NCBI GenBank assembly: GCA_031362565.1
Contig: JANLSU010000070.1
Location: 1 to 64,000, forward strand
Length of the DNA: 64,000 nt
Origin: a bacterium
GTDB lineage: Bacteria; Krumholzibacteriota; Krumholzibacteriia; G020349025
Direction of reading: 5' to 3'
Of this stretch, positions 7,863-46,016 are shown piece by piece. Numbering within the stretch: the stretch's first letter is position 1; every line of letters starts with the position of its first letter. The notes under the pieces are model-generated. The model was not told the DNA's origin and ran no database searches. It saw nothing but the letters and a program-made list of their open reading frames with translations. The translations under genes were made by a program, and so were the position numbers.

Positions 7863-7868
7863 GCGACC

Positions 7869-21600: not shown

Positions 21601-22763
21601 CTCGAGATCTCGCCCGGCGCCGCCAACGTGACGCCGGCACCGTAGTTCGAGAAGTTGGCGCGCGCCCCCGTGGCGTCCACTGCGCCGACTGCAATGACGC
21701 CCGGCTGGCTGCTCGGCCAATGCGGCGCGGCGCGCCCGCCATTGCCGGCTGCCGCGACCACGACAACACCATGCGCCAGCGCATATTCGAGCGCCGCCCG
21801 CACCAGGCGCGATTCCTCGCTGTCACCCCAGGACAAGTTGAGAATGCGGGCGCCATTGTCCACCGCATAGACGATGGCCGCCGCGGCGTCATCGGTTTCG
21901 AGGACGCCGCCGCCGAGCGGCGTCGTGTACGCCGCCCGCAGCGTCATCAACCGCACGAACGGCGCGACGCCCTGCAGCGATCCATCGGCGCCGACGATGC
22001 CGGCCACGTGGGTGCCGTGGCCCTGTTCGTCGCTCGGGTCCGCATCGCGATCCACGGCATCGCCGGCAGCGCCTTTGCCCGGTGCATCGGTAAAGTCGAA
22101 CCCGTGGACGTCGTCGACATAGCCGTTGTCGTCGTCGTCATCGCGCTCCCATTGCTCGACGATGCCGTCGCCGTTTTGATCGTTGGCGTCGTCGGCGAGG
22201 CGTGCATCGCCCGGTGAGTCGTCGTTGAGCCACAAGCGGCGCACGAGATCGGGATGGGTGAGATCACTGCCGGTATCGATCACCGCAACGATGATCGTGG
22301 TGTCGGGCGTGACGGCCGCGAGCGCTTCAGGAGCGTGAATCTGCGCCACATTGGGGGGAATCTCGGCGGCAGCGCCACCGGCGGGTGGGCTCGCGACCGC
22401 AACATCGTGGACGGCTTCACAAAGGACGTCTGGGCGGTGCACGGCGAGCCAGGCGCGGGCGCTTTCGCACCTCTCGGCGGTCGGGAAGCGCACGATGCAC
22501 CAAGCATCCATCGGATGCGAGAGTGCCGGCCCACGGCCGGCGGCGAACGCGGTCCCGGTCTTGAATGCAGGGGGTGAGATCGAAGCCAAGAGCGGCCGGG
22601 CATCGATCGGCGGTGAAGGTAGGGCCGCAAGAATCGACGTAAGGGCCGCGGTCCGCGTCACGGCCGACGCCGCGGGTGCCGGCACGCGCACCGCGAGACT
22701 CAGCGGCTCGGCGCGCGCCACGGTGGCCGCGGCAAGCAGCCCCAGCGCCCAACCGAACCGCAC
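18606..22763 (-). CDS. Secreted S8 (subtilisin) peptidase with FG-GAP-like repeats, Fn3/Ig-like domains and C-terminal FlgD-Ig sorting domain
   Basis: Catalytic triad VIDTG / HGTHVAG / GTSMA; GDxDxDG repeats; APNPVRP..IYDVEGQLVR..WNLRN..ASGTY; GTG start after AGGAG. Confidence 0.88.
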   Translation of the reverse strand: MRFGWALGLLAAATVARAEPLSLAVRVPAPAASAVTRTAALTSILAALPSPPIDARPLLASISPPAFKTGTAFAAGRGPALSHPMDAWCIVRFPTAERCESARAWLAVHRPDVLCEAVHDVAVASPPAGGAAAEIPPNVAQIHAPEALAAVTPDTTIIVAVIDTGSDLTHPDLVRRLWLNDDSPGDARLADDANDQNGDGIVEQWERDDDDDNGYVDDVHGFDFTDAPGKGAAGDAVDRDADPSDEQGHGTHVAGIVGADGSLQGVAPFVRLMTLRAAYTTPLGGGVLETDDAAAAIVYAVDNGARILNLSWGDSEESRLVRAALEYALAHGVVVVAAAGNGGRAAPHWPSSQPGVIAVGAVDATGARANFSNYGAGVTLAAPGEISSTFEGGILSLAPGGGRARLRGTSMAAPHVAGAAAIVMSRPDHPDAEAVRTLLIAGARRATRADWSAAVGHGVVDVLQSVHASADAFVEFLAPSRAYFRGRVTLLGTVLGSDIVRWRVDAAPHAGGPNVELRAWTAAAVVADTLVAMPFTVPPEGLWDVTLAAETGAGRTLSRHTAFQSDTTPPRLKSLAVASGWRSGAAHDCVTLVADEEVQARIGIAPGDTLYDADAGLTTRLQIEVPQRTGSGPWQLTLTNAAGLAFDTLATAPPGLGRWPREAQVERGDSTAAFMPEAAAGRAPDGTAVVWGRGQVADSLTTLQAWGVNSGQWTLRFDAGRQMRPVAAGDANGDGADDVLAQRSVARAGQAVWLVSRSASGFPDSLLASVPAERVLGLFQLDADAPLEALLSSDDSLFVYDDVRTLPPRRLQALVNPSRAGFNVFGADAAVGDFDADGHIEIASGDAEGHVAVWERDATGVFQVEWTADTQGTYAYDFTALATGGFLVGRQRSASVTGDGFATAPYDFIPYLPDGSGAFFVQGPPLTFLGPENDLQAGSAAARDPFDNTAWLALVRGSDLYLQRDGVHVTQLPGAGGDAPVLLDLDGDSHLDVVCRSSNGARWWRTGAAAGELADLETESLGSTRVQLRWTPNVALTSRVRRLHANVWDTLGETSTATWIDSTAVADADYSYEVEAVAGLVVQGRTNRVDVHTQALPRLVRAVQFGRESLRVTASNRFGPSALAPDAWRLEPAAGAGPHVLQAGLVGDGRDIELVLDAPLPLGTTVIRAARVRDDQKGRFRAAGAAIAIVATRPPPPFAVRGVHAEANGFAVVFGRAVDPATVLAGNFIVRRSTVQLAVATATLADSATVQLRLAPGAPLLALGAAFFVRVGAALQAADGTPLVHPELDYHVAQNGRGVAFMRVAPNPVRPQDPEEVVFADVTPQTRVRIYDVEGQLVRDLSGAADGGLRWNLRNSAGGRVASGTYVFVARDGTGVRQGRVVVAR

Positions 22764-22771
22764 GGCGTCTC

Positions 22772-23692
22772 CTACAGATCGATGGAAAAGGCGAACTTGT
22801 GGCCGGTCCCAAGATCGTTGCCGACGTCGGCGTAGGCGTAGTCGAAGTGATAGCCCGACTTGCGAATTCCGACCCCGAACGTCAGTCCCTGGGAATCGTA
22901 GTTGGCCTTGTAGCCGACGCGCGCACTCGCCACATCGCGGTACACGTACTCGAGGCCGACGTGCTGGCGCGCATCGCCGTCGGTTACGAACACGAGATCG
23001 AACGCGGCGACAATCCGGCCCGCGAGTTCCGGCATGGCGCGTTGGTAGTCGGCGCCCAAGCGTGCGGTCGCCGGCAACACGAACTCGTCGGACACGAACT
23101 TCACTTTCGGGCCTAAGTTCTGCGCCGCGCCGGCGAACGTCAGGCCCTCGATCTTGGTGCGATAGCGCGCTCCGAAGTCCACGGCCCAACCGTTGGCGCT
23201 GACGTCATCGAGCTTGCTGTACAGGCTCTTGACCGCGATGCCGAGATCGACATCCGGAACGATGCGCCGCCCGTAGGCGCCGGCGACGGTCATTTCGAAA
23301 GCATTGAAGTTGCCGCTCGGATCGGCGCTGGCGTTCTCACGCCGCTCGATCTCGTCGAGGTACATGCCCGAAAAGTGCAAACCGAAATTGCCGGCAGCGG
23401 TGGCGTGGGCGAGTGATGCCGTTTCCATTCGCACCGTGCTCAGCCACTCGTCGTGCATCAATGTAAAGCTGGTGTTCTTCACCGATGCCAAGCCGGCGGG
23501 ATTCCAATAGGTCGCCGTGGCATCCTCCGCAAGCGACACCTGGGCGTCGCCCATGCCGGCCGAGCGTGCCCCGGCCCCCAAACGCAATGACAAGAAGCCG
23601 GCGGTGCCCGCTTCGCCGGCAAACGCGAGCGCCGGCAACGCGACGCAGAATCCAAGCGCGACGCACGGCGCCCAATTCGAGATGCGACCCAT
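22772..23692 (-). CDS. PorV/PorQ (UPF0164) family outer-membrane barrel
   Basis: FLSLRLGAGARSAGMG, YWNPAGL, QNLG, FDYAY motifs; signal peptide; AAGGAGG RBS. Confidence 0.85.
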   Translation of the reverse strand: MGRISNWAPCVALGFCVALPALAFAGEAGTAGFLSLRLGAGARSAGMGDAQVSLAEDATATYWNPAGLASVKNTSFTLMHDEWLSTVRMETASLAHATAAGNFGLHFSGMYLDEIERRENASADPSGNFNAFEMTVAGAYGRRIVPDVDLGIAVKSLYSKLDDVSANGWAVDFGARYRTKIEGLTFAGAAQNLGPKVKFVSDEFVLPATARLGADYQRAMPELAGRIVAAFDLVFVTDGDARQHVGLEYVYRDVASARVGYKANYDSQGLTFGVGIRKSGYHFDYAYADVGNDLGTGHKFAFSIDL

Positions 23693-23812
23693 GGAACGCG
23701 AGCCTCCTTCGCCCCCGGTCGCGCCGCAGGTCGCGCGGTTCCGGAAACTCGTCTCATTGTAAACCGCATGGCGGGCGCCCGTCCACGCCACAGGCAACCG
23801 ATCAATCAAGGG

Positions 23813-26800
23813 CTAACGGCGAATGACCACCGGCCGGACGCGCTGTCCGCCGGTCGAGAGTTCCATGTGTGCAACATACGCTCCGGGAGCAAGGCCGCGC
23901 ACGTCCAGCGCGAACTCGACGATCGTCCCCGCGGTGCCGGTGCGGCGCGCGGCGCGCACCAGTTGGCCTTCGATGGTGTAGAGCCGGAAAGCGACGCTGG
24001 CCGGCGCCGTAAGCGCGACGCGCCCCCGCAATTCTTCGGCCGCCGGATTGGGGCCGACCGTGAAACTCGCGAGGCGCGAATCGTTGCTCTGGACTTGCAC
24101 GGCGGGTGCCCGTTCATCGCGATACGTGTGGGCGCCATTGCCACCGGCTTCGCCCCACGCCACGTTCCCAAGCCGCGGCAGATCGAACACCGCCAGCTCG
24201 CCGCGTGGCACGACGATCAGACTGTCCGGGGCGGGCCAGTAGCGCCGCGTCGACGCGAAGCGCCCGGCGGCGATCAATTCCTGCCGGCCGTCGCCGTCCA
24301 AATCGGCAAGCAGTGGCGTACCGGCGGTACGCGCCGGCAATGCGGCTTCGAGGTCGCGCACCCGGCTGCCGTATCGGTTCCACACCTGCAACGCTCCACC
24401 GCGCAAGTGCAGCAACACTTCCATCCGTCCATCGCCGTCCAAATCCGCAACGAGCGGCGCACCGGCATCACGCCCCGGCTCCGGTTCACGATCGAGGCCC
24501 GGTTCGTGCGAGAACGCATCCGGCCAGCCGTGCAGTTCGGCGCCGGTCGCCGATAACACGTGCAGGGCGCGAGTGCCCGCAAACACCACTTCCAGCGTCC
24601 CGTCGCCGTCCAAATCCGCCAGCGCCAGCGGCGAGACGTGGGTGTCCGCAAAGGTCGAGACGCGGCCGTGAGTCCAGAATTGCCCATCGTCGCTCACCAG
24701 CACGAGGTCATCGGTCGCATCACCATCCAAGTCGCCGCTCGCCATTTGCACGGCGGCGTGCGTCCAGTCCAATTGGATGTGATCTGTCGTCGTGCGGCCT
24801 TCGACTTCGACGGTGCGGGCGCTTGGTGATTCGAGCAACCAGGCGGCGGCCTTTTCGCGGCTGCCGATCGTTTGCGCCGCGATCGGGGCGCTTTGGGGCA
24901 ACGTCGTCCCCGGGTGTGGTGTGCCGTCGAGCGCCCAACTGCCGTCGGAAGCCCGCGTCAAGAACGACAGCTGCACGACTGGTACGAAGAGCGGTTGTGC
25001 GGAAGCGACGGCGATGGCGATTTGTCCGTTGGTCTTGAAGTCGTAGAGCGCCGGCGCCGTGACGCTGCCGGGGATCGCGGTGAGCAGCCCGTCGCGGGTC
25101 GACGGATTGGCGTCCCGATCCCACACTTCGCTCCCATCGGCGTGCCAGGCGAAGATTCGCGCCACCGGTGCACCGAAGGACGCCCCGTTCACGGCGACCA
25201 CCAGATCCGCGGCACCGTCGCCGTCGATGTCGCCGACGGCCGGCGGGCCGGCCCACGATCCGCGCAGTGCAGGTGCAAGCGTGTTCCAAGGCGTCAATCC
25301 CGGCGTGCCGTGCGCCGCGTCGGCAAGCCCACGGTCGAGGAGAAAAATACGCCCCGAATCGGCCAGCGCCACGACCGCCGACGTTCCGCCGGTGAGCGGC
25401 AATGCCACCAGGTCCGACAACTCGAAGCGCGCATCGTCACGCCAGGCCGTGCGGCGTGGGGCGGCGATTTGCGCCGCCGGGGGGCCAAACTCGATGCGCA
25501 CTTGGGCCCGTCCTCCCGGTGTCGTGACAACCGAATCGGGCAAGGCCACGAGCGTGATGCGAATGCCGGTCGGCGCGCCATTGACGCTCCGCGTATTGGG
25601 ATCGCTGTCGGGTCCAAAGACGTGTCCGCGCACCCAATAGTCGTCGGCGCTGCCGAAGCTGCGCGTGTTGTCGGGGCGCGAGTCCAGGTCCTGAATTCCG
25701 TCCGCTTCCTCGACATCGACGGCTTTGCGGCGCGGATCGCCTTCCACATTGTTGCTGGTCGTCGCGAGCACGTCCTGCAGCGCCTGCTCGTCGACGTGCA
25801 GCACCAAGAGCCCATAGCCGTCGCCGGCCTGAACGCCGCCGAGCTGATCGGTCATGAAGAAATCCCACTCGGCGCCGGCGTACGAATCGATGTCGTCACC
25901 GGGCGATAGTTCGCCATCGGCGTCGTGATCGATGAAATTGAACGCACAATCGGCGTTGCGGTCGTCGAATTGGAAGAAGCGTTGCGGCCCGCGCGGCTGC
26001 CCGGCGCACGTTTGGATGTGCGGCCCATCGGGATCCTCGAGCACGTACGACACCAAGAAGTATTCACGTTCCGAAATCCGCACCCGCACGACGGTGGAAT
26101 CCGCCGTACCGCGCTCGAGGTCGCGAAGCGCTACCGTGGCATCGGCGTTCACCTCGACCGGATCGAGCCACCCCATGAGCAGGCGGTTGAAGGCGCTCGG
26201 CTGGGCCGGAATGAAGCCATTCGCGACCCACAGCCCATACGCCATGACATCGAAGTTTCCGAGCCCCTGCGAATCCGGCACCGGCGACGGTGTCGAGTCG
26301 AAGAGTGGAATCAGTCCCAGGCGCTGCCCGATTTCGTGCGCGTAGACACCGAGACTGCCGAGACGCGTGTTGTCCGGTGGATGCAGATCTTGGACTTGCC
26401 ACTCGGGTAGCACCACGACGTTGCGCACTTCGACGCCGTCGGCGGTCGTGATCCCGGTCGCCGTGCTGTCCGATCGCGACAGCACCTCATGAAATGTCCG
26501 GTCGTCCAAGAAGCCGGACCAAATTTGGGTCGGCGAATCGCCGTTGATGTCGGATTCCTGGCCGGGACCCGCGTGCACGACGATGACGCCGTCATAGCCC
26601 GAAAAATCCACCACGCTGTCGGCGGCTTGGACGGCTTCACGCGTCAGTTCGACCATCGAGCTGTCGTAAATCGCCACGTCGCCGTAGCTCGGCTCGGGAT
26701 GCGCGGCGCGCGCCACGACATCGGCCACGTCGACGCGCAACCCCAAGCGGCCCTTCGATGCCGCGTCGAAGTACTGCGTCACGTAGTGAAACTGGGTCTG

Positions 26801-27094
26801 GTAGTAGAAGCGGTCGTGGCGCTGATCGGCGGGCGGCGACGCCCCGAAGGCGAGATCGGGAAATTCGATCCTGAGCGCCAGCAAACGCACGCTGTCGACG
26901 CCGGCCGCCTTGTGCGGCAGAAGCGCACCGGCGGCGAGCCGCGCTTGCAGGCGCGCGAGGTTGTCGCGCGAAACGCTGTGCGCCGGCGGCACGCTGCGCC
27001 CGTGCTTGTGGGGCGCCAGCGGTGACGCGAACGCCACCGAGTGGAGCCCGAGAAAACCAGCGAGCGCGACCAGCGGAAGCCAACGATTGCGCAC
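23813..27094 (-). CDS. M6 (immune inhibitor A)-like metalloprotease domain protein with FG-GAP repeats and C-terminal sorting domain
   Basis: LALRIEFPD, VVHAGPGQE, HEIGQRLG, DVMAYGLW, SAFNRLLMGW, ADLDGDG repeats, GPNPA..YTIEGQLV..LAPGAY. Confidence 0.8.
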   Translation of the reverse strand: MRNRWLPLVALAGFLGLHSVAFASPLAPHKHGRSVPPAHSVSRDNLARLQARLAAGALLPHKAAGVDSVRLLALRIEFPDLAFGASPPADQRHDRFYYQTQFHYVTQYFDAASKGRLGLRVDVADVVARAAHPEPSYGDVAIYDSSMVELTREAVQAADSVVDFSGYDGVIVVHAGPGQESDINGDSPTQIWSGFLDDRTFHEVLSRSDSTATGITTADGVEVRNVVVLPEWQVQDLHPPDNTRLGSLGVYAHEIGQRLGLIPLFDSTPSPVPDSQGLGNFDVMAYGLWVANGFIPAQPSAFNRLLMGWLDPVEVNADATVALRDLERGTADSTVVRVRISEREYFLVSYVLEDPDGPHIQTCAGQPRGPQRFFQFDDRNADCAFNFIDHDADGELSPGDDIDSYAGAEWDFFMTDQLGGVQAGDGYGLLVLHVDEQALQDVLATTSNNVEGDPRRKAVDVEEADGIQDLDSRPDNTRSFGSADDYWVRGHVFGPDSDPNTRSVNGAPTGIRITLVALPDSVVTTPGGRAQVRIEFGPPAAQIAAPRRTAWRDDARFELSDLVALPLTGGTSAVVALADSGRIFLLDRGLADAAHGTPGLTPWNTLAPALRGSWAGPPAVGDIDGDGAADLVVAVNGASFGAPVARIFAWHADGSEVWDRDANPSTRDGLLTAIPGSVTAPALYDFKTNGQIAIAVASAQPLFVPVVQLSFLTRASDGSWALDGTPHPGTTLPQSAPIAAQTIGSREKAAAWLLESPSARTVEVEGRTTTDHIQLDWTHAAVQMASGDLDGDATDDLVLVSDDGQFWTHGRVSTFADTHVSPLALADLDGDGTLEVVFAGTRALHVLSATGAELHGWPDAFSHEPGLDREPEPGRDAGAPLVADLDGDGRMEVLLHLRGGALQVWNRYGSRVRDLEAALPARTAGTPLLADLDGDGRQELIAAGRFASTRRYWPAPDSLIVVPRGELAVFDLPRLGNVAWGEAGGNGAHTYRDERAPAVQVQSNDSRLASFTVGPNPAAEELRGRVALTAPASVAFRLYTIEGQLVRAARRTGTAGTIVEFALDVRGLAPGAYVAHMELSTGGQRVRPVVIRR

Positions 27095-27403
27095 AGGTCT
27101 CCTCGCAAGGCGCCACGAACGAGCCTCAGCGTAGGGCGGGCTGGAACCCCGGTCAAGACGCGCCGCGACCCGTGGCCTCGGCGCCCGGGCGCCGGGGCTG
27201 AAAAAGAAGGCGGGAACCCCTCGCCGCCCGCAATGCCGCCCCTGATCGGCACCACAGGTTACTCAGGGTTCCCTCACGAACCGGCAGACGGTCACGGACC
27301 GACCAGGCGACGCGGACCAAGGAGTTTCCTTGGGGGTCAAGTTCCACCCGCGTGCTGTCGAAGCCTGGGGGCTCGGTCTCGCTTTCCGCGTTCCGGCCGG
27401 CCG

Positions 27404-28501
27404 TTACCTTTCTGTACGGCGGTCGCGACGCCGGGCGCGTTCGGCGTCCGTCAATCCATCGGCGCCGCGTCGCGCGATCGCGACACGCGGCATCTCGAAA
27501 CGGCGGGCACGGGGCCGATCCACGCTCTCCGCCGCCGGAGTCGCGACGCGTCGCGCTCCGTCGTCGAGATCGCGATCGCCTTCCCGCGACGTCGCTCCAC
27601 GTCGCGGGCCGTCGACGGAAGGGGCCCCGTACTCCGCCGCGTCACGTTGGTGCCTGCCCGCATCGACGCCCACTTCGCGCCGGCGCCGTTCACCCGGGAC
27701 GGGACTCCGGTTCCCCGGTGACGGCCTCGGCTCGAAGTGCGCTTCGGCGTGCCGCAGCACGCGACGATCGTTCTGGTAGACGTACAGTGGTCGGTACACC
27801 GGCCGGCAATACCGGCCGCCGCGCTGCCAATCCCAGGCCAGTTCGGCGCGGACTTGCGTCCACGGACCGTGGTAACCGCGATAGCGGCCGGCGCACACGC
27901 CGCACAAATACGCCGGATGCGAGCCCGCATGCCCGACGCAGTACCACGCGGCGTGGGTCGCGAACGCCGCCTTGTCCCAGTCCGGGAAAAGCAACCGGTT
28001 CACATCGTTGAAACCATCGAGTGGATCGCCTTGCACCCGCAGCGGACTGCCGTCGCGCCACCAATCACACCGGCCGTCGCCGGCGACGAGTCCGATGCCA
28101 CGCCAATCGAACGGCACCGGGCTCGCAACGGCCTGCACATAGACGATCCCCTCGACGCCGCAATCGGCGATCGGATACGCGACACTGCGGCCGTCCAAAC
28201 GCACCCGCTCACCCGCCGGCACGAATCCGTCCGCGCTCCAGAAGCGCGGGAAGAGCAACCGAACCCAGCCCTGCGGGTCGATGGCATACACCGCCACGTA
28301 TGCATCCGAATCGACTTGGAACGACAGGCGTGCCGTTTCGCCCGCCTGCACAACGGCGCCGGAACCGCCTGCAATGCGCAGATCGAGTTGCACGTCGCCG
28401 CCATACCACGCGTCCCAGTCCGGGCGCGGCGGATGAGCGGTTGCCGCGGCCGGCAACGCCACGCACGCCGCGATGCACCACAGGCGAGAAGCGTGCTTCA
28501 T
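27404..28501 (-). CDS. DUF4384-like secreted protein with Arg-rich tail
   Basis: Signal peptide; GETARLSFQVDSDAYVAVYAIDPQGWVRLLFP; GVEGIVYVQAVASPVPF. Confidence 0.7.
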   Translation of the reverse strand: MKHASRLWCIAACVALPAAATAHPPRPDWDAWYGGDVQLDLRIAGGSGAVVQAGETARLSFQVDSDAYVAVYAIDPQGWVRLLFPRFWSADGFVPAGERVRLDGRSVAYPIADCGVEGIVYVQAVASPVPFDWRGIGLVAGDGRCDWWRDGSPLRVQGDPLDGFNDVNRLLFPDWDKAAFATHAAWYCVGHAGSHPAYLCGVCAGRYRGYHGPWTQVRAELAWDWQRGGRYCRPVYRPLYVYQNDRRVLRHAEAHFEPRPSPGNRSPVPGERRRREVGVDAGRHQRDAAEYGAPSVDGPRRGATSREGDRDLDDGARRVATPAAESVDRPRARRFEMPRVAIARRGADGLTDAERARRRDRRTER

Positions 28502-29415
28502 CGCGCCACGCTCCGTTCCGAGCGGCTGTGTACGGGGCCGTTGCCGGCTCCCAGGTGCGGCTTGAGTTCCAGGCTGTTGGGTTGGATTTGATACGCCCAG
28601 TCGAGCAGCACCGAATCCCCGCTCAAGCCGACGACGCGCACCTTCGCGACATTGAACGGTTCGACATCGTTCCCCGACCGCGTTTCCTCGTACAGCTTGA
28701 GGAGGATCACATGCCCCATCTGCAGAGGCACCACCGACACCGGCGACCAGGTCGACTCGTCGAGGTGGCCAACGCGGTCGTCGTCCAAGTTGAAGACGCC
28801 GAGATCTTGAAGTTCGACCACACTCGGTTGCCCGGTGCGCAGCACCGGGCGGCCTTCCCAGGCGTAGTACACATCGGCGAACAAGCTGTTGGACTCGAGC
28901 GCATAGCCGTAAGGAGACCGCGAAAAATCGTAGCCGCTCTCCGCGTGGCGGGTGCCGTTCGCGTCATAGAGGCGCAAATCCCGGCCGGCCGGCCGCGGCG
29001 TGTCGGAGGCGACCGACGCATCGCCAAGATCGCTGTGATTTCCGGCGTAGTCGACCGATTCGACGGCGAACCAGTAGGTCGAACCGTTGCGCAGATCGAA
29101 CGGCACGTCGGCCGGCAACGATGCGCCGCGCACGACCCAGTGGCGTTGCGACACCGGCGCTTCGGCAACGCGGTAATAGTCTTGATCGTCGCGGCTGATC
29201 AGGATGCGAAATCCCGCCAGGTCCGCGTCGTGCGGCGGCGACCAGTAGACTGTCACTTGACCATCTCCCGTTACCGAGTAGACGTCGCGCGGTTCGCCGG
29301 GAGCGACGTTGTCGTTGTGGTCGAGCACGTCGCGCCGGTGTGCGTCGTCGAAGCAGCCGGTGAGCGCAGCCGTTCCGACGAGCGCAATGCAGATTCCAGT
29401 TCGCCGCCCGGTCAT
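28498..29415 (-). CDS. Lipoprotein with fibronectin type III domain
   Basis: Lipobox LTGC; GDGQVTVYW..DLAGFRI..LRNGSTYWFAVESVDYAGNHS. Confidence 0.8.
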   Translation of the reverse strand: MTGRRTGICIALVGTAALTGCFDDAHRRDVLDHNDNVAPGEPRDVYSVTGDGQVTVYWSPPHDADLAGFRILISRDDQDYYRVAEAPVSQRHWVVRGASLPADVPFDLRNGSTYWFAVESVDYAGNHSDLGDASVASDTPRPAGRDLRLYDANGTRHAESGYDFSRSPYGYALESNSLFADVYYAWEGRPVLRTGQPSVVELQDLGVFNLDDDRVGHLDESTWSPVSVVPLQMGHVILLKLYEETRSGNDVEPFNVAKVRVVGLSGDSVLLDWAYQIQPNSLELKPHLGAGNGPVHSRSERSVAR

Positions 29416-29572: not shown

Positions 29573-29588
29573 CGCAACCGACATGCCA
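29573..29588 (-). promoter_or_regulatory. Sigma-54 (-24/-12) promoter for the lipoprotein-DUF4384 operon
   Basis: TGGCATGTCGGTTGC versus consensus TGGCAC-N5-TTGC; palindrome TGTC-N8-GACA upstream at 29753-29768. Confidence 0.65.
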
Positions 29589-30937: not shown

Positions 30938-31920
30938 TCGAGCGCATCGAGACCGAATTGCGTGCTGCGTGGTCACGGCGCGGCGAACCGGCACCGCGCC
31001 GCGTGCACTGTCTCAAATTCGGCGCCGCCAACTACGCGAACCCCGGTACCGCCTTGGTGTTTTTTGCGTTTCGCGACGCCGCCGCGCAACCGGCCGCGGT
31101 GGTCAAGGTGGCGCGCGATGCCGCCGGTGATTCCGCCGTCGAGCGCGAAGTCGAGTCGGTGCAGAGCCTGCGCGCCCGGGTTGGGGCGGTGTTGGCGCGG
31201 CTCATTCCGGAGCCGCTGGCGGACGGCGCAGTGAACGGCCGCGCTTTCGGGGCGTGGACCGCGCTCGGCGGCACCGCCGACTTGCACCATGTCGACGGGC
31301 CGCGCGGCGCGCGCCGCAGCGAATCACGCATCGCCGCCGCCCTCGGTTTCCTGCGCGACCTGCAACGGGCAACGCCGGCCGCACCGGTCCGTGCCGCGGA
31401 GTGCATCGGACCGTGGGATGCGGTCCGAGCCGAACTCGCCGCGGCGGGCAGCACACCGGCTGGCTTGGAGAAATTGGCCGCGGTGGCGGCGGCCGCGTGG
31501 GAAACGCCGTGGCCGGCCGCACTCGCGCATGGCGATTTCTTTCCCGGCAACATTCTCTTCGACGCGCGCCAAGTGACCGGCGTGGTGGACTGGGCGACGG
31601 TGGTGCTCCGAGCGCCGGTTTGGCTCGATTCGCTCGGGTATGAACTGAGCTTCGCATTGCATGCGCTGTCGCGTGGCCGCGGCGCGGAGACCGCGGAGCG
31701 TCGGGCCACGGCAGCACTCGGACCATTTGCCGCCTCCGGCACCGAGCTCGCGGCGGCGGGCGTCGACGCGGGCTGGGGTTCGGCGGCACGCGTGCTGGCG
31801 GTTGCGGCGGGAGCGGTGCGCGAAACCCGCGGCGGCGCGGCGCGGCGTGGCGTGGCGGAGTTGTGGCTGCGGCTCCTTGAACTGGAAGCACGCGACTTCG
31901 GCGGGCGCGGCGCGCCATAA
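30934..31920 (+). CDS. Aminoglycoside-phosphotransferase (APH)-like kinase
   Basis: AVVKVAR, HGDFFPGN (Brenner motif), VVDW; ATGA overlap with the methyltransferase. Confidence 0.8.
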   Translation: MIERIETELRAAWSRRGEPAPRRVHCLKFGAANYANPGTALVFFAFRDAAAQPAAVVKVARDAAGDSAVEREVESVQSLRARVGAVLARLIPEPLADGAVNGRAFGAWTALGGTADLHHVDGPRGARRSESRIAAALGFLRDLQRATPAAPVRAAECIGPWDAVRAELAAAGSTPAGLEKLAAVAAAAWETPWPAALAHGDFFPGNILFDARQVTGVVDWATVVLRAPVWLDSLGYELSFALHALSRGRGAETAERRATAALGPFAASGTELAAAGVDAGWGSAARVLAVAAGAVRETRGGAARRGVAELWLRLLELEARDFGGRGAP

Positions 31921-31949
31921 AAATGGGCCGCCGCGATTGCGACGGCCCA
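31919..31949 (-). terminator. Rho-independent terminator on the minus strand
   Basis: UGGGCCGUCGC-AAUC-GCGGCGGCCCA-UUUUU; the U-G pair works only on the minus strand. Confidence 0.75.
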
Positions 31950-32236
31950 CTCCGGAGGCCCGAGCCAGTATGACGTTCGTCCCACTGTCACCGAGTTCTC
32001 GCCTCAACCCGGTGTCGTTCCCCCGTCTCCGCTCGTCACGGAGCACGGCTTCATGAATGTCGGCGCAGAGGTTCGGCGAGGGCGACACGGTAAAAATTCG
32101 CTAGGGGGAAGCACGAGGCCGGGATGGAGCGCCAATCCCCACACTGGCGTCCATCCCTAAGCCCCAGCTTTCCGATCAACCCGCGAATCTCGAACGGTCG
32201 ACCTGAGATTCGCGAGTCACGCATCGATGCGAACAG
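31919..32236 (-). ncRNA. Candidate sigma-54-dependent structured small RNA (~320 nt)
   Basis: Bounded by a sigma-54 promoter and a terminator; two long stems (32182-32214, 32115-32165); no ORF with an RBS. Confidence 0.55.
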
Positions 32237-32246
32237 CTACCTACAC

Positions 32247-32263
32247 AGCACCCGCCGTGCCAA
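32247..32263 (-). promoter_or_regulatory. Sigma-54 (-24/-12) promoter
   Basis: TTGGCACGGCGGGTGCT versus consensus TGGCACG-N4-TTGC (one mismatch). Confidence 0.8.
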
Positions 32264-32285
32264 ACAAAGTCGACGATGCAATGGC

Positions 32286-32372
32286 TTATTTTACAGCACG
32301 TTACAGGTATAGCCCGGCGGGGATCCCAAAACGCCGCCGAAAATTTGCGGGGAACTGTGAAATTTATTCATA
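32286..32372. promoter_or_regulatory. IHF-like AT-rich site and candidate enhancer (UAS) palindromes
   Basis: TTATTTTACAGCACGTTA (32286-32303); CCGAAAATTTGCGG (32337-32350); TGTGAAATTTATTCATA (32356-32372). Confidence 0.5.
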
Positions 32373-32500
32373 GCCGCGGCGGGTGGTTTGTTGGAAAGCG
32401 TTGATTCTACGGCAGTTCGGCTACGAAAAACTTTTACTAGCGGGCGCGGCCCGATTTCGAATTTGGCGCGCCGCGGTTCCCCGCACTGGCGGCGTGGCGC

Positions 32501-32523
32501 AAAAAAAAACGGGCTGACGCCCG
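32501..32523 (-). terminator. Terminator of the TPR sigma-54 activator gene
   Basis: CGGGC-GTCA-GCCCG followed by T9 on the minus strand. Confidence 0.75.
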
Positions 32524-32566
32524 CTCTGAGCCTCCAGTTGGGCTCGGCTGCCCCTTTGGCCGCAAC

Positions 32567-35500
32567 TCACATTTCGCCTGGCTCGACGGCTGAACCGTAC
32601 AGTTTGATCTTCTGCAAGAGGCTTGGATAGCTGATCCCGAGCATGCGCGCCGCTTCGGATTTGTTGCCATCGGAACGGCGCAGGCAAACTTGGATGAGAT
32701 GCGACTCGAGTTGCGCGACGTGTTCGCGCAGCGTCAAACCACCGGGGTCCGCTGCCTCGTCGACGCCGTCGGAGAGCGCCTTGAGTTCGTCCGGCAGGTG
32801 CCGCACGGTAATCGGCTGGCGATCGTCCGCCAGAATGACCGCCCGCTTGATGCATTTTTCGAGCTCCCGCACGTTGCCCGGCCAGGCATAGGCCTCGAGC
32901 AGTTGCATGGCCTGGCGCGACACACCGGGAATGGTCTTCTGCATCTCCACCGTGAACCGGCGCAGGTAGTGTTCGACGAGCGGCTTCACATCGCCGCGGC
33001 GGGCGCGTAATGGCGGGATCGTGATCGGGAAATCATTCAACCGGTAGTACAGATCTTCGAGAAACAAACCCTGGCTCACGAGTTCCTTGATATTGCCCTT
33101 CGTCGCCACGATGACCCGCACATCGACCTTGCGGAAGACGTTCGAGCCGACCGGACGCACTTCGGAACTGTCGAGAAACTGCAAGAGTTTGCCCTGCATG
33201 AACAGCGACGTCTTGCCGACCTCGTCCAAGAAGACCGTCCCGCCCGTGGCGGCTTCGAGCAAGCCCATTTTCTCGGAGTCCGCGCCCGTGAAAGCGCCGC
33301 GCGCGTGCCCAAAGAGTTCGCTTTCGAGCAGCGGTTCCGGGAGCGCCGCGCAGTTCAGGGCCACGAACTTGCGGCCGCGCCGTTCGCTCGCCATGTGAAT
33401 GCCGTGGGCCAGCAACCCCTTGCCGGTGCCGGTTTCGCCGGCCAGCAGCACCGTGCAGGTGCTCGCGGCCACCTTCTGCGCCAAACCCATGACCCGGAAC
33501 ATCGACGCATCAGTGGTGATGAGACGGCGCATGGCCGGATGCAAATCGTCGCGTCCGGTTTGCACTTCGGGCGCTTGCAGCTGTTCGCGATAGTGCTCGG
33601 CCACCAACACGCCCGCCATACTCGCGAAAGTCGCCACGACGTCGACGTCGTCGGGGCCAAAGGGCCGCGGCGCTTGGGCCCGCGCCCGCTCGACATACAC
33701 CACACCGATCACGCGTTCGCCGGCGCACAGCGGATGCCAAATCACTGCGCCGGCGCGCGCCGCCAAGTCCGCAAACTGGCTCGCGAACGCACCGTCGACC
33801 TGGGCGAGCACCCGCGGCCGGCAACCGTCACTCATCATCGCGCCGGCGAGTCCGAGCGCTTCGTCGGCACCGATGCCGCTTGTACCGTGCAGATGCGCCG
33901 CCGCCTCACCCGGAAAACGCAGCGCCAAGAACGCCGACGACGCGCCGACGCGATCCCGCAATGCTTCGAGCGACTGGCGCAAACCGGGCTCCAGGTCATT
34001 GGCCGAACGCGCCAGCGCATACAAATCCGAAAACAACTGCGTCGCGCCGCCGGGACCGTGGCTTGAACGGGCGACGAGCGCACTTTCCAGGTCACGGCGC
34101 AGGGCCTGCGCCTCGCCCAGGAAACCGAACGTGGGATTGTCCTCGCACAGCCGCTCGACGTCGTACAGGGCCAGGAGTCCATCGTCGTATTCACCGCGCC
34201 CGAGATGGGCGCGCGCGATCACGAGCCCCGCCGCGCAGTAGCCATGATCTTCTTCGAGCGCGTGCAGGGCTTCGGAGGCCGCGGCACCTTCGTGGGCGGC
34301 GCGCAACAGCCCTTCGGTGTCGCCCTGCGAGCAATGCAACCGCCCCAATTCGATACGGCTCCATGCCGCTTCGAACGGATTCGCGGTGCGCTCGAAGGCG
34401 GTCACACTGGCGGTCAGACACTTGATTGCCTCGGCGTGGTGCCCGAGTCCCGCTGACGCGAGTCCGAGAGTGCGGAGGATGAAACCCACTTCGTGCGTGT
34501 CGCCACAGGACTCGCAAACCTTCAATGCACGGCGGGCAATCGCGACGGCCTCGGAGCGCAGCCCGCAGCGCAGTTGCAATTCGGCCTGGCGGCGCAGGAT
34601 CTCGCCGACGACGTCACCCTTGGGGGCGAAGGACCGCGCCTTCTTGAGCCCCGACTCGTAGTTCTCGCGCGCCTCGGCCAAGCGGCCCTGGGCGAACATC
34701 GAATCGCCGAGGAATTCGTCGGCGAGCGCCAGCGAGCGCGCCATCTGATGCCGCTCGGCGACAACGCGCGCCTCGAGCAGATATTTTTCGGCCTGCGCGT
34801 ACTTCCCCATCGCAATGAGGACGCGGCCCAACGAATTGAGGCAACTCACCACGGTACCTTCGTCGCCCAGCGCACTCGCCAGCCGGCGCGCGCGCCGCAA
34901 GTGCGCCACGGCTTCGTGGAACTCGCGAGTTTTGGTGTAGACGATGCCGAGATTGCCGAGCGTGCGCGCCAAACGCCGGGTCACTCCGAGACGCTCGGCG
35001 ATATCGCGCGCCTGGGTCAGCGAACGAATCGCTTTGTCCCACTGGCAGGCGTTCTTGTACGCCAGCCCGAGATTGTTCAAGACATCGGCGATGCCCTCTT
35101 GATCCTCGATCCGGCGATACGCCGCCAGGGCGTCGAGATTCAATTGCTCGGATTCCGCGGCGCGTCCGAGACGCAGGTTGCAGCATGCGGCGACGCTCAG
35201 CACGAAGGCGTATTCGCGGTGAGCGGCCGTCGCCTTGAGGATTTCGAGAGCGATGCGGGCGTCTTCGAGGGCCGCTTCGTGCCGCCCCTGCGAGCACAAG
35301 AGATCGGCGCGCCGCCCAAGCATGAGACCATGCTCGAGTTCGTATTCGTAGCCCTTCAGGAACAAGCGGGCGCGTTCCAGGTACGTCTGCGCTTGCTCGA
35401 GCTGGCCGCGCGAGCGCAGGCAATCGGAGATCTTGCGGTTCAAACGGGCCGCGACCGTGGGATCGAATTCGACCTCGGTGCCGAGTCCGCGCAGCGCATC

Positions 35501-35635
35501 CTCGTAGTACTCGAGCGCCGGCGAAAAGGCCTCGGTACCGAAATGGACGTCGCCGACTTCCTCGAGAGCAGCCAAGGACGCGGCCGACTCCCGGCCGTTG
35601 GGTTCCCCTGGATCGTGGCGATCGCGACTCAGCAT
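32567..35635 (-). CDS. TPR-repeat / GAF-like / sigma-54 AAA+ / Fis-HTH transcriptional activator (~1022 aa)
   Basis: TPR-like repeats (LNNLGLAY, LGNLGIVY, LNSLGRVL), GETGTGK, ESELFGH, GAFTGA, FLDEVG, WPGNVREL, NKSEAARMLGIS. Confidence 0.92.
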   Translation of the reverse strand: MLSRDRHDPGEPNGRESAASLAALEEVGDVHFGTEAFSPALEYYEDALRGLGTEVEFDPTVAARLNRKISDCLRSRGQLEQAQTYLERARLFLKGYEYELEHGLMLGRRADLLCSQGRHEAALEDARIALEILKATAAHREYAFVLSVAACCNLRLGRAAESEQLNLDALAAYRRIEDQEGIADVLNNLGLAYKNACQWDKAIRSLTQARDIAERLGVTRRLARTLGNLGIVYTKTREFHEAVAHLRRARRLASALGDEGTVVSCLNSLGRVLIAMGKYAQAEKYLLEARVVAERHQMARSLALADEFLGDSMFAQGRLAEARENYESGLKKARSFAPKGDVVGEILRRQAELQLRCGLRSEAVAIARRALKVCESCGDTHEVGFILRTLGLASAGLGHHAEAIKCLTASVTAFERTANPFEAAWSRIELGRLHCSQGDTEGLLRAAHEGAAASEALHALEEDHGYCAAGLVIARAHLGRGEYDDGLLALYDVERLCEDNPTFGFLGEAQALRRDLESALVARSSHGPGGATQLFSDLYALARSANDLEPGLRQSLEALRDRVGASSAFLALRFPGEAAAHLHGTSGIGADEALGLAGAMMSDGCRPRVLAQVDGAFASQFADLAARAGAVIWHPLCAGERVIGVVYVERARAQAPRPFGPDDVDVVATFASMAGVLVAEHYREQLQAPEVQTGRDDLHPAMRRLITTDASMFRVMGLAQKVAASTCTVLLAGETGTGKGLLAHGIHMASERRGRKFVALNCAALPEPLLESELFGHARGAFTGADSEKMGLLEAATGGTVFLDEVGKTSLFMQGKLLQFLDSSEVRPVGSNVFRKVDVRVIVATKGNIKELVSQGLFLEDLYYRLNDFPITIPPLRARRGDVKPLVEHYLRRFTVEMQKTIPGVSRQAMQLLEAYAWPGNVRELEKCIKRAVILADDRQPITVRHLPDELKALSDGVDEAADPGGLTLREHVAQLESHLIQVCLRRSDGNKSEAARMLGISYPSLLQKIKLYGSAVEPGEM

Positions 35636-35670
35636 GGATGTCCCTTGGCGTTCAACCGAATGCCGCTTCG

Positions 35671-36000
35671 CTACGCTCGGAACCTGGACCACATCTTGAA
35701 ACCTTCACGAATCTGCATCCACAGGTCCTGGAAGTCCCAGTCGCGTTGCGCCCCACCTTGATTCGGCGCGACGCCGGTCGTGGGCACTCCACCGCGCGGC
35801 GGCAGCGCCGTCCGGTTCGGCATGTCGTCATCACCCGGAGTGGTGATCGGCGTGCGCGGATTGGGGAGCGCCGGCTGGTTGCGCGCCCGAGTCACGAGTT
35901 GGCTGTATGAAGATTGATCGGCCGCGCGGAGGGGAGAGACCGCGACGGCAAGCAAGACCGCGGAGACCAGAAGCGACGCTGGCCAAAACCGCTTGAGCAT
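35671..36000 (-). CDS. Small secreted Pro-rich protein (109 aa), candidate signalling pro-peptide
   Basis: AAGGAG RBS; signal peptide MLKRFWPASLLVSAVLLAVAVSPLRA; Pro/Thr-rich core with PGDDDMPNR; aromatic amphipathic C-terminus; 35 nt upstream of the activator gene. Confidence 0.7.
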   Translation of the reverse strand: MLKRFWPASLLVSAVLLAVAVSPLRAADQSSYSQLVTRARNQPALPNPRTPITTPGDDDMPNRTALPPRGGVPTTGVAPNQGGAQRDWDFQDLWMQIREGFKMWSRFRA

Positions 36001-36139
36001 GGCCCAAACTCCTTCCGCACCGACGGCCCCGAGTGGGACTCGTACTGGCGAGGGCCCGGCATCGAAAGCCTTCCGCGTCGCCCCAACCCGAATCCGAAAG
36101 TTCAAGGGCATCCTCCGAAACACGACACGGATTACTCGA

Positions 36140-36167
36140 ATGATAACACGCCGATGGGGGGCGTCAA
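36140..36167 (-). promoter_or_regulatory. Sigma-70-type promoter for the peptide-activator operon
   Basis: TTGACG-16 nt-TATCAT with TGn extended -10. Confidence 0.6.
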
Positions 36168-36307
36168 GTGACCCGCGCCGGATTTCCGCGCGCCGGGCCG
36201 CGAAACCCGTTGCGGCACGGGAGGGTACAGGCCCGCCCACCGCTGCGGTCGCCCCTGCGGGGGCATGCGTCTTGCCCTCCCGAAGGCAAGCCGAAAGGGG
36301 CCGCGCG

Positions 36308-36925: not shown

Positions 36926-36929
36926 GCCC

Positions 36930-38218: not shown

Positions 38219-39580
38219 CTACTCCGAACTCTTGGGCAGATCGTACTTCTCGATCTTCTTGTAGAGATTGCTGCGCTGCATGTCGAGCTCGCGAGCGGTG
38301 CGGCTGACGTTGCCGTCGTTTTCGGACAGCTTGCGTTCGAGAAAACGTTTCTCGGCCTCGTCCTTGAATTCTTGGAATGTGCGGTGTGTGAACAGGCTGT
38401 CGTCGTCGGGATTGCGCGGGCCGACGGGATCGAGTGGCAGATCGACGGCGTCGATCCGGTCGCCGCGGGTCAGGATGAGGGCGCGCTCGACGAGATTGCG
38501 CAACTCGCGGACATTGCCCGGCCAGGGGTGCAGCACGAGGCGCTCGATCGCCTGCGACGTCATGGTCTTGGGACGCTGGCCGACGCCTTCGGACAAGCGC
38601 TGCAAGAAGTAGTTCGCGAGCAGCGGCACGTCGTCGCGGCGCTCCCGCAGCGGCGGGACGCGAATTGGCACGACATTCAGCCGGTAGAACAGATCTTCGC
38701 GGAATTGCCCGGCGCGGGACTCCGCCAATAGGTCTTTGTTCGTGGCGGCAATGACGCGGACATCGACGAGGCGCGTTTCGTTGCCGCCGACCTTCTCGAG
38801 CTTGCCTTCCTGCAGGACGCGCAGGACCTTGGCCTGCGCGGCCAGGCTCATATCGCCGATCTCGTCCAGAAACAACGTGCCGCGATCGGCCTGTTCGAAC
38901 TTGCCGACCCGGTTGGCGATCGCGCCGGTGAAACTCCCCTTCACGTGCCCGAACAGTTCCGACTCGATGAGTTCATCGGGAATCGCGGCGCAGTTCACTT
39001 CCACGAACGAATCGGCGGCGCGCCGGCTCTTGGCGTGAATGGCGCGCGCCACGAGCTCCTTGCCGGAGCCGTTTTCGCCGACGATGAGGACGCGCGCGTC
39101 GGTGGGAGCGACGCGTTCGATGGTGTCGCGGATGGTCTGCATCGCGGCACTCTGGCCCATCATTTCGTCGTGGCTCGGGTGGGTGCGCCGCAGTTCGCGG
39201 ATTTCGCGCGCCTGTTGCCGCTGCCGCAGTCCGTTGCGAATGACGGTCAGGAGGCGTTCCTGCTCCCAGGGTTTCTCGAGATAGTCATCGGCGCCGAGTT
39301 TCATGCACTCGACGGCGGTCTGCGTGTCGCCATGCGCGGTGACCATCACCACGAACGGTCCGTCATTGCGCTCGCGAATCCGCTGCAACACTTCCAAGCC
39401 GTCCATGCGCGGCATCTTGATGTCGAGCAGCACGACATCGACGGGTTCTTCGGCCAGCAGTTCCAAGGCGCGGAAGCCGTCCTCCGCGAGGCGGGTCTCG
39501 TAGCCGTTGTATTCGAGCAAGCGTTGCAGCGAAATGCGGATACTGTCTTCGTCGTCGACGATCAAGATGCGCTGGGCCAC
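38219..39580 (-). CDS. Sigma-54-dependent response regulator (NtrC/NtrX family)
   Basis: REC (ILIVDDE, LLDIKMP), GENGSGKE, GSFTGA, WPGNVREL, HTH. Confidence 0.93.
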   Translation of the reverse strand: MAQRILIVDDEDSIRISLQRLLEYNGYETRLAEDGFRALELLAEEPVDVVLLDIKMPRMDGLEVLQRIRERNDGPFVVMVTAHGDTQTAVECMKLGADDYLEKPWEQERLLTVIRNGLRQRQQAREIRELRRTHPSHDEMMGQSAAMQTIRDTIERVAPTDARVLIVGENGSGKELVARAIHAKSRRAADSFVEVNCAAIPDELIESELFGHVKGSFTGAIANRVGKFEQADRGTLFLDEIGDMSLAAQAKVLRVLQEGKLEKVGGNETRLVDVRVIAATNKDLLAESRAGQFREDLFYRLNVVPIRVPPLRERRDDVPLLANYFLQRLSEGVGQRPKTMTSQAIERLVLHPWPGNVRELRNLVERALILTRGDRIDAVDLPLDPVGPRNPDDDSLFTHRTFQEFKDEAEKRFLERKLSENDGNVSRTARELDMQRSNLYKKIEKYDLPKSSE

Positions 39581-40803: not shown

Positions 40804-40819
40804 GCCGCGGACCGCGGCG

Positions 40820-44624: not shown

Positions 44625-46016
<1,392 letters not shown>

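Follow-up and report, generated by a model that had tools for sequence, protein, structure and literature searches.

A recurrent pair of genes for a predicted small exported protein and a TPR-type sigma-54 activator, with an adjoining candidate RNA, in Krumholzibacteriia

To our knowledge, nothing is known about gene regulation in the Krumholzibacteriota lineage. Here we describe a cassette of genes and putative regulatory elements in a 64,000-nucleotide (nt) stretch of DNA (hereafter the window; contig JANLSU010000070.1 of assembly GCA_031362565.1) from a 100%-complete, 5.4-Mb genome of Candidatus Krumholzibacteriia, members of a diderm candidate phylum. The parts of the cassette, comprising promoters, a small open reading frame (ORF), an activator gene, a terminator and a predicted structured RNA, all reside on the minus strand. 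We find that the pairing of a small secreted protein carrying an acidic motif with a sigma-54 activator carrying tetratricopeptide repeats (TPR) is a recurrent module, and that the window's activator, which has TPR and GAF domains, is a core, mostly single-copy gene of the phylum. The explanation for the whole that we judge to be the best, and that we offer tentatively as possible rather than probable, is that the cassette represents the core copy of a Krumholzibacteriia two-gene sensory module that would be joined to the output of a sigma-54-dependent small RNA (sRNA). The cassette may be a peptide-signalling circuit of the Gram-positive type. We know of intracellular TPR peptide-signalling circuits so far only from Gram-positive bacteria.

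The first-pass annotation, which was prepared from the letters of the window, had listed seven features in this region, and each could be located again (Table 1). A sigma-70-type promoter precedes the small ORF, from which it is separated by a 5′ leader of ~140 nt, and it is the sole match to its pattern between positions 31500 and 36600, where shuffled sequences yielded 0.4 ± 0.6. By eye, a TTGAC hexamer followed ~17 nt on by a TA-rich hexamer is visible in 20/20 orthologous upstream regions. What had been called the gene for a secreted Pro-rich peptide of 109 amino acids (aa) corresponds to an ORF with a signal-like N-terminus. The activator gene begins with the ATG at position 35635, exactly 35 nt after the small ORF as had been proposed, and its TPR-GAF-AAA+ (GAFTGA)-HTH build was confirmed by Pfam. 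Beyond the activator stop codon (32569-32567) lie the expected terminator, a palindrome that resembles an upstream activator sequence (UAS), a stretch that resembles a binding site for integration host factor (IHF), a near-consensus sigma-54 promoter that we term P1, and the predicted structured RNA with its own terminator. The UAS-like palindrome and the IHF-like stretch, which like several of our statements on promoters were assessed by eye, are the weakest of the seven features.

Evidence that the two genes belong together comes from their repeated association. The genome carries 22 strong sigma-54 activator genes, three of them in the window, and some of these 22 are matched by a TPR query. 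A six-frame scan of the same genome for GDDD.P, a motif of the small protein, returned 11 frames, five of which have a signal-like N-terminus. All five are located on the same strand as a TPR activator and 1.9-2.9 kb upstream of its GAFTGA sequence, at three loci: the window and contig C21 contribute one ORF each, and contig C83 a tandem of three. The other six frames have no activator within 6 kb downstream, and no signal-bearing GDDD.P ORF is found beside the other ~18 activators of the genome. Given 16 GAFTGA frames in 5.4 Mb, it is very unlikely that three independent loci would arise by chance, for which a rough estimate is 1e-7. A hidden Markov model of alignment A4, which holds 16 sequences from the window's family, also retrieves the small protein of C21 with E = 4.6e-5 among 47,183 ORFs.

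The association extends to other genomes. We compared the cassette at 21 loci, namely the window and 20 fetched orthologous loci (L022-L041), and in 20 of the 21 the activator start is preceded, at a distance of 35-122 nt, by the end of a small ORF that has a signal-like N-terminus. A further 19 loci encode short TPR-activator paralogs; these were chosen by hand, not as a random sample, and comprise three loci from the window's genome and 16 secondary TPR matches from nine families' worth of genomes. At 17 of these 19, a small ORF with a signal-like N-terminus abuts the activator start, the exceptions being L093, where the sequence is cut 314 nt upstream, and L080, whose 1498-aa protein has a different build. 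The short paralogs are 767-861 aa in length, and all seven that were tested have TPR, Sigma54_activat and HTH_8 domains and lack GAF. The two genes are co-directional, with a gap of ~-4 to ~120 nt. The first-pass annotation had proposed looking for a small ORF on one side of homologous activators and for a promoter and RNA on the other, and the arrangement is conserved class-wide, such that the non-conservation that would have counted against it was not observed. Because the pairing is both repeated and specific, the small protein and the TPR domain probably function together, and we consider it likely that the small protein is the functional partner of the adjacent TPR activator.

Several of these loci have peculiarities of their own. 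At L078 (C83, ~7130-10860), three tandem signal-peptide ORFs with the motif PGDDD(I/D/T)P precede one 787-aa TPR activator, an arrangement that recalls tandem pheromone precursors. The L080 gene (2459-6952, minus strand, contig C120) codes for TPR and Sigma54_activat domains behind a long N-terminal part and has no small secreted ORF upstream. At L037, the small ORF ~120-430 nt before the activator start seems to be split, with the signal peptide in one frame and GDPDE... in another, which could be due to a frameshift or an assembly error.

The small protein of the window consists of a predicted signal peptide, a Pro-rich linker, an invariant PGDDDMPNR motif and a C-terminal amphipathic helix rich in W and R; apart from the one motif and the terminal helix, it is acidic, Gly/Pro-rich and of low complexity. 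At its N-terminus, a basic n-region is followed by 12 hydrophobic residues that form the core (mean Kyte-Doolittle value 3.05), with small residues at -3 and -1. We assigned signal peptides with a simple rule of hydropathy and charge rather than with a trained predictor, and by this rule all 31 small proteins examined (78-145 aa) carry, after one to five K/R residues, a hydrophobic 12-mer whose mean value is at least 1.98, which is in turn followed by small residues suited to signal peptidase I. A motif of the G-D-x-D-D type is present in 30 of the 31, and most have a C-terminal amphipathic helix in which W and R/K are frequent. In alignment A4, whose members are 23-68% identical to the window's sequence, P..GDDD.P is invariant and an R is kept in at least 90% of the 16 sequences. 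The acidic motif takes a lineage-specific form: the window's family has GDDDxP and family f2 has GDPGDG, and GDADD, LGDD(W/Y)DDD or GEPGHDPF is found elsewhere. Searches of Pfam and NCBIfam with the window protein gave zero matches, and a query of the ESM Atlas gave no informative neighbour (best score 0.78). Because tblastn matches stay inside the window's family (4/41 genomes, including its own), the small protein is recognized across the class by its position and features.

The activator is predicted to be cytoplasmic and has no membrane segment. Its TPR portion matches TPR_12 in six stretches (6.6e-37) and is followed by a GAF domain (~569-696 of a 1041-aa frame), a Sigma54_activat domain (PF00158, 1.1e-60) in which the GAFTGA loop was found, AAA_lid_14, and a C-terminal HTH_8 (1.2e-11). 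The genome also encodes RpoN, whose DNA-binding domain is matched at 5.5e-63 on contig C38, and a conserved promoter-like element, of the -24/-12 type at which the TPR-GAF protein might exert ATP-dependent activation, adjoins the activator gene. The TPR-GAF part has a full-length counterpart in 41/41 relatives, the identity being 57-59% inside the family and 29-36% for members of other families. Among 201 sampled genomes of the phylum, a TPR-GAF profile (E <= 1e-40) matches 194, including all 125 that are of high quality, and the seven genomes lacking a match are 65-89% complete. Public annotations give the orthologs generic names only, and a search for homologous proteins returned family-level orthologs with such names and then unrelated TPR proteins. 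The N-terminal profile best matches peptide-binding TPRs, namely those of kinesin light chain (5.5e-15) and Pins/LGN (~1e-11), and it matches Rap proteins more weakly than kinesin light chain (4.8e-6 to 4e-5). A complex prediction for TPR-GAF residues 1-690 with the mature small protein (residues 28-109) gave scores of 0.02 and 0.02, which weigh neither way.

Downstream of the activator gene, the near-consensus sigma-54 promoter proposed by the first-pass annotation has persisted. An element of the form TGG(C/T)A(C/T)-N5-(T/G)TGC occurs 195-321 nt past the activator stop in 19 of the 21 loci; at L031, TGGAAC-N5-TTGC is seen by eye, and a search downstream of the L028 activator found no P1-type element. 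In the window, the pattern TGGCAY-N5-KTGC occurs three times in 64 kb, compared with 0.61 ± 0.84 in shuffled sequences, of which 3/100 reach three. By eye, elements like CTRTNAA-N5-TTNAYAG lie ~110 nt upstream of P1 in several orthologous loci, where AT-rich stretches resembling the IHF-like region are also visible. In the 700 nt that follow the activators on C83 and C21, no sigma-54 promoter was found, and therefore the sRNA appears to belong only to the long TPR-GAF copy. The third match to the sigma-54 pattern in the window (33725-33739, minus strand) falls within the activator coding region and is probably a chance match.

The stretch that follows P1 has the characteristics of a structured RNA. 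The predicted window RNA has a minimum free energy of -156 kcal/mol (z = -4.47), and 0/100 shuffled sequences fold equally well, in keeping with the structured stretch that had been claimed. Seven distinct sequences of the window's family, drawn from the window, four genomes and two metagenome contigs, were aligned and analysed with RNAalifold, which gave 63 pairs in seven helices, 23 of them with compensatory changes. On this structure, which was derived from the same seven-sequence alignment, 91.6% of cells are paired versus 84.4 ± 1.0 in shuffles, and the 23 double-change pairs compare with 13.5 ± 2.2 (0/500 shuffles reach 23) and with only 4-9 when partners are slid by one to three columns. 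Much of this covariation signal is carried by the terminator, which closes the RNA with compensatory changes in all seven family members, and by two hairpins with the invariant loops (A/U)GUGGGGAU and UGAGGCGAG. The RNA exposes G-rich loops, and a CCUCC stretch precedes the terminator in the window RNA. No ORF is kept in position, frame or strand among the seven RNAs, and a 57-aa ORF inside the RNA (32051-32224) was rejected as a gene on this ground and because it has no Pfam match. Rfam searches at the gathering score over the window yielded only one tRNA, which lies elsewhere; nothing below E = 1.7 was obtained over positions 31700-32700, and 15 orthologous loci gave no match. The sequence comparisons point to a new structured, putatively sigma-54-dependent RNA that is absent from Rfam. 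Covariance model R1, which represents hairpin A in the window's family, finds a single copy in the window's genome.

The generic marks of a structured RNA (conserved structure, compensatory changes and the lack of an ORF) are found in the window's family only, on the seven sequences. Elsewhere, short motifs persist at a constant place. GUGGGG(U/A) lies 378-516 nt past the activator stop in 21/21 loci, and GTGGGG[A/T] lies 117-297 nt past P1 in the 19 loci where that promoter was detected by pattern. At the 16/16 loci outside the window's family, the motif reads AGGUGGGGUC by eye, with a short and varying flanking stem. At 17 of the 21, a hairpin is found whose loop reads (A/U)GGCGAG and whose stem clearly varies. 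Model R1 gave no significant match at the expected place in ten loci of other families (best anywhere, E = 0.024).

Two further observations bear on how the RNA might act. The sequence (U)CUCGCC occurs 11-20 nt before the activator start, just 5′ of the ribosome binding site (RBS), at 10/21 loci (L022-L025 and L036-L041); CUCGCC is complementary to the sRNA loop GGCGAG, and the window has only ACGCC there. This leader sequence is a candidate site for feedback by the sRNA, although one without covariation support. RNA duplex predictions between the sRNA and the initiation regions of the small ORF and the activator gave z-scores of +0.9 to -1.95, an uninformative range. The genome also encodes CsrA, and a reading of the RNA as a CsrA sponge was set aside because its GGA triplets fall mostly within stems.

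Table 1. Positions of the cassette elements, neighbouring genes and a separate RNA, numbered along the window unless a locus is named
Feature	Position	Strand	Basis or remark
Sigma-70-type promoter of the small-ORF/activator operon, TTGACG-16 nt-TATCAT	36140..36167	-	10/12 positions + TG extension
Small exported protein gene (predicted), 109 aa	35671..36000	-	ORF 36000-35674, stop 35673-35671
Sigma-54 activator, 1022 aa, predicted cytoplasmic: TPR (~530 aa)-GAF-AAA+ (GAFTGA)-HTH_8	32567..35635	-	Pfam, NCBIfam
Intrinsic terminator-like hairpin + T-run, 3′ of activator gene	32497..32527	-	hairpin 32527-32506
Candidate UAS, imperfect palindrome CTATGAA-N5-TTCACAG	32355..32373	-	by eye, ~128 nt upstream of inferred start
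AT-rich IHF-like region between candidate UAS and P1	32281..32310	-	by eye, no tool score
Sigma-54 promoter P1, TGGCACGGCGGGTGCT (TGGCAC-N5-GTGCT)	32247..32262	-	near-consensus
Structured non-coding RNA (predicted), ~320 nt	31917..32236	-	fold, covariation, terminator
Loop GUGGGGA of RNA hairpin A	32142-32136	-	fold
Loop AGGCGAGA of second RNA hairpin	32004-31997	-	fold
10-bp GC stem of RNA terminator, followed by ATTTTTA (U-run)	31948-31924	-	fold
Sigma-54 promoter P2, TGGCATGTCGGTTGC, next base G, ahead of surface-protein operon	29574..29588	-	pattern scan
P2 operon	18606..29415	-	four genes, surface proteins
P2 operon: lipoprotein, lipobox LTGC	29415-28498	-	ATG 29415
P2 operon: DUF4384 protein	28501-27404	-	
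P2 operon: FG-GAP protein	27094-23813	-	
P2 operon: S8 subtilase/FG-GAP protein	23189-18606	-	
NtrC-type response regulator (REC-AAA+-HTH), conserved upstream neighbour	38219..39580	-	Pfam, NCBIfam
Separate ~100-nt RNA, other-family loci	L027:6528-6626; L028:2685-2786(-); L030:2211-2309(-); L031:2443-2541(-); L032:2343-2442(-); L033:6601-6701		

The cassette is part of a larger conserved cluster. A second sigma-54 promoter, P2, precedes an operon for surface proteins. At 16/16 loci outside the window's family, an element TGGCAC-N5-TTGCG lies 745-1038 nt past the activator stop and just before the lipoprotein gene, and in these families the homologous lipoprotein and the next gene follow downstream on the same strand within ~0.8-1.0 kb. 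By eye, the elements upstream of P1 and P2 differ. On the other side, a homolog of the NtrC-type regulator (450-494 aa) is encoded directly upstream of the small ORF in all 13 listed loci of other families. In the window, a methyltransferase gene (29771-30937, plus strand) and an APH-family kinase gene (30934-31920, plus strand) part the RNA from the P2 operon, and a gene for a Bac_transf/PglD-like sugar transferase (36168-38126, plus strand) parts the NtrC-type regulator from the small ORF. These opposite-strand genes appear to be insertions into an ancestral cluster.

With these characteristics in mind, we propose the following sequence of events. The sigma-70 promoter would direct transcription of the small pre-protein and the cytoplasmic TPR-GAF-AAA+-HTH activator, after which the pre-protein would be exported by the Sec system and cut by signal peptidase I, as its sequence suggests. 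Either the small protein itself or a fragment derived from it could then be the cognate signal that the neighbouring protein senses through its TPR domain, with the conserved acidic motif acting as a lineage-wide element for processing or recognition and the variable C-terminal amphipathic segment providing specificity. Given a standard cleavable signal and an activator with no membrane segment, the sensing of a returned fragment is the simplest route, and the likeliest course would be export, processing and sensing of the returned peptide in a manner reminiscent of RRNPP systems. Taken by itself, a route through a re-imported peptide nevertheless seems to us somewhat unlikely. Eight SBP_bac_5 peptide-type binding proteins are encoded in the genome, and an uptake route is therefore possible. 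The status of the ligand, together with whatever is bound by GAF, would release the AAA+ domain, and the activator would bind upstream of P1 to switch on the ~320-nt RNA, and would probably also act at P2. The RNA most likely would act in trans through its loops GUGGGG and GGCGAG and its anti-Shine-Dalgarno-like CCUCC stretch.

A more ambitious joint reading, which we consider doubtful, sees the cassette as a diderm counterpart of RRNPP systems with a sigma-54 AAA+ output, signals cut by a subtilase, paralogs as channels, and sRNA feedback. In this view, the lineage-specific acidic motif would mark the site at which the pro-proteins are cleaved after export, perhaps by the S8 subtilase encoded in the P2 operon; the C-terminal amphipathic peptide would then re-enter the cytoplasm, where its binding to the TPR domain would release the activator. 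The several paralogous peptide-receptor pairs per genome might serve as separate channels, and the TPR-GAF copy would turn its signal into an sRNA that feeds back on the activator's own mRNA. The latter step is suggested because the GGCGAG loop complements CUCGCC beside the RBS at the ten loci noted above.

The signature of RRNPP systems has been given as adjacent genes for propeptide and receptor, an N-terminal secretion signal, a TPR receptor of 250-500 aa and a propeptide of 10-100 aa, with validated receptors and propeptides spanning 285-473 aa and 21-50 aa, respectively (PMC10075063). Adjacency was found here as the 35-nt gap in the window and at 20/21 ortholog and 17/19 paralog loci; the secretion signal is present, by the simple rule, in 31/31 small proteins, and the receptor-like protein carries TPR_12 at 6.6e-37. 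In line with that signature, the cassette further resembles the RRNPP(A) systems Rap/Phr, NprR/NprX, PlcR/PapR and AimR/AimP in joining a signal-bearing small gene to an intracellular TPR regulator, in its several paralogous copies per genome and in the tandem precursor genes at C83. There are also clear differences. RRNPP output is provided by an XRE-type HTH or a phosphatase, whereas here it would be provided by a sigma-54 AAA+ activator. Unlike in RRNPP(A) systems, the receptor gene is preceded by the small gene, the host belongs to a diderm candidate phylum rather than to Bacillota or their phages, the gene for the long copy belongs to the core rather than the accessory set, and the TPR domain is less similar to Rap than to kinesin-light-chain TPRs. 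Also unlike in validated RRNPP systems, the acidic motif tracks lineage rather than paralog, and the sRNA accompanies only the long TPR-GAF copy.

On the output side, the non-coding RNA in each of the LuxO-Qrr, CbrB-CrcZ/CrcY and GlrR-GlmY systems is encoded beside the activator gene. Control of these small RNAs by sigma-54 activators has been documented (PMC8657755; 10.1101/2021.07.01.450815). The cassette resembles the systems of Vibrio (LuxO-Qrr), Pseudomonas (CbrB-CrcZ/CrcY) and enterobacteria (GlrR-GlmY) in its enhancer-binding protein, -24/-12 promoter and adjoining RNA. However, the RNA is not Qrr, CrcZ or GlmY, since it matches no Rfam family, and its activator is predicted to sense through TPR and GAF domains rather than as a phosphorylated response regulator. 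In contrast to the LuxO-Qrr group, the RNA is single-copy and Hfq was not found in the genome.

Other sigma-54 systems offer partial parallels. In NifL-NifA and PspA-PspF, a protein modulator of the activator is encoded immediately upstream or in the same operon, and NifA has a GAF domain. The cassette likewise has a gene upstream of the activator gene, but in contrast to NifL and PspA, which are cytoplasmic and belong to known families, its product is a small, apparently exported protein of no known family. ZraP is a folded periplasmic protein of the CpxP family that acts on a sensor kinase, and the cassette resembles ZraP/ZraSR in linking a small exported protein to a sigma-54-dependent system. 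It differs in that the neighbour is a soluble TPR activator and in that the small protein is of low complexity. We found no description of the cassette in the published literature on TPR enhancer-binding proteins, on RRNPP systems with sigma-54 or on regulation in Krumholzibacteriota.

A number of points weigh against the view that the cassette is a peptide sensor with an sRNA output. The receptors (767-1022 aa) and small proteins (78-145 aa) fall outside the validated size ranges of RRNPP systems. The peptide-receptor idea of the first-pass annotation does gain comparative support from the pairing (5/5 ORFs in the window's genome and 17/19 paralog loci), and its interpretation as a whole is partly supported. 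Typical quorum-sensing cassettes diversify, whereas the long copy is a core gene that is universal and single-copy. The acidic motif is the same in long and short cassettes (GDDDxP in both for family f1, GDPGDG in both for f2); as it tracks lineage and not paralog, it cannot be the specificity determinant. The candidate UAS is a loose palindrome. There are further activator genes in the window (38219-39580 and ~45045-45545) among the 22 genome-wide, and therefore adjacency alone does not assign P1 to the TPR-GAF activator. The base-pairing test draws its structure from the alignment on which it is run, and because models built from one family miss the RNA of the others, the RNA is taken as homologous across the class from its position and short invariant motifs. 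Hfq was sought in the 100%-complete genome and not found, which makes a Qrr-like dependence on Hfq unlikely.

Even if the two proteins are partners, re-import need not be involved. The TPR domain could hold the unexported pre-protein, for example by its C-terminal amphipathic helix, such that export frees or changes the activator. FlgM with sigma-28, and TPR chaperones such as IpgC with MxiE, provide parallels for such a partner switch, which would need no uptake system, would account for the pairing of a cytoplasmic protein with an exported one, and would suit both the tight co-directional pairing, which suggests stoichiometric co-production, and the tendency of TPR domains of this type to bind extended or C-terminal peptides. 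However, proteins with a standard cleavable signal normally pass through Sec rapidly and constitutively, which leaves little to sense, and the three tandem small ORFs at C83 fit signal precursors better than a stoichiometric inhibitor, and we judge such a switch to be quite unlikely. Alternatively, the small protein might never contact the TPR domain, being instead a co-expressed component of the envelope or periplasm, or assisting a membrane sensor as ZraP does ZraSR and CpxP does CpxA, and its acidic motif could bind cations. The acidic, Gly/Pro-rich low-complexity sequence with its lineage-wide motif would fit such binding or a structural role, and both the conserved NtrC-type response regulator upstream and the surface proteins encoded by the P2 operon would be in keeping with a role of the small protein without contact. 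That the association is specific to TPR activators at independent loci, holding for 5/5 ORFs in the genome and for none beside its other ~18 activators, speaks for direct contact instead, as does the lack of an NtrC-type neighbour and of the P2 operon in the examined stretches around the short-paralog loci. We consider such a contact-free role unlikely.

The assignment of P1 also has a real rival in the NtrC-type neighbour, which is a conserved member of the cluster. This regulator, or another of the 22 strong activators in the genome (three in the window), might drive P1 and the RNA while the TPR-GAF protein acts elsewhere, for example at P2, whose upstream elements differ by eye from those of P1. 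Against this, P1 is kept 195-321 nt from the TPR-GAF stop codon at 19/21 loci and has survived the insertions in the window, and known sigma-54 small RNAs often adjoin their own activator genes, as qrr1 does luxO and crcZ does cbrB. Because P1 is fixed beside its gene in this way, the TPR-GAF protein is the likeliest activator of the RNA; we judge that it probably drives P1, and that control by a different activator is improbable. Finally, the 320-nt stretch might be no independent regulatory RNA but a remnant or cis leader of the ancestral downstream operon, or might not be transcribed, given that other families have the lipoprotein operon within ~0.8-1.0 kb on the same strand. We regard this as very improbable in view of the terminator with compensatory changes in 7/7 family members, the presence of P2 as the operon's own sigma-54 promoter at 16/16 other loci, and the retention of promoter, structure and loops in the window despite two opposite-strand genes before the operon.

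If the small protein and the TPR activator are indeed signal and receptor, then the sensing of peptides by cytoplasmic TPR proteins would no longer be confined to Bacillota and their phages but would also occur in a diderm candidate phylum, and it would be coupled to sigma-54 transcription, a combination that we did not find in the literature. Regardless of the pairing, a phylum-wide core regulator is defined, a putative new structured sigma-54 RNA is described, and a two-promoter sigma-54 regulon for surface proteins can be outlined provisionally in an uncultured lineage. Simple sequence rules describe the module: beside a TPR-AAA+ gene lies an ORF whose product begins with a signal peptide, carries an acidic motif and ends in an amphipathic helix.

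Two observations from the surroundings of these cassettes are included for completeness. The third activator gene of the window (~45045-45545, plus strand, in a 794-aa frame) is near a gene for a HAMP/HisKA/HATPase kinase (40745-42400, plus strand). A separate RNA of ~100 nt, which is also not in Rfam, sits between the sigma-54 RNA and P2 at six loci of other families. A covariance model of this RNA built from the six loci, R2, has matches at L041 (1.3e-5), L038 (0.029), L036 (0.035) and L039 (0.13). In the window, R2 matches only the terminator, and we set aside homology between the 3′ half of the window RNA and the ~100-nt RNA as unsupported beyond short motifs. The ~100-nt RNA has its own sigma-70-like promoter and a closing stem, and it carries the invariant sequence GGAAUGGCGAGAU together with the anti-Shine-Dalgarno-like GGACAUCCCCUCCG.

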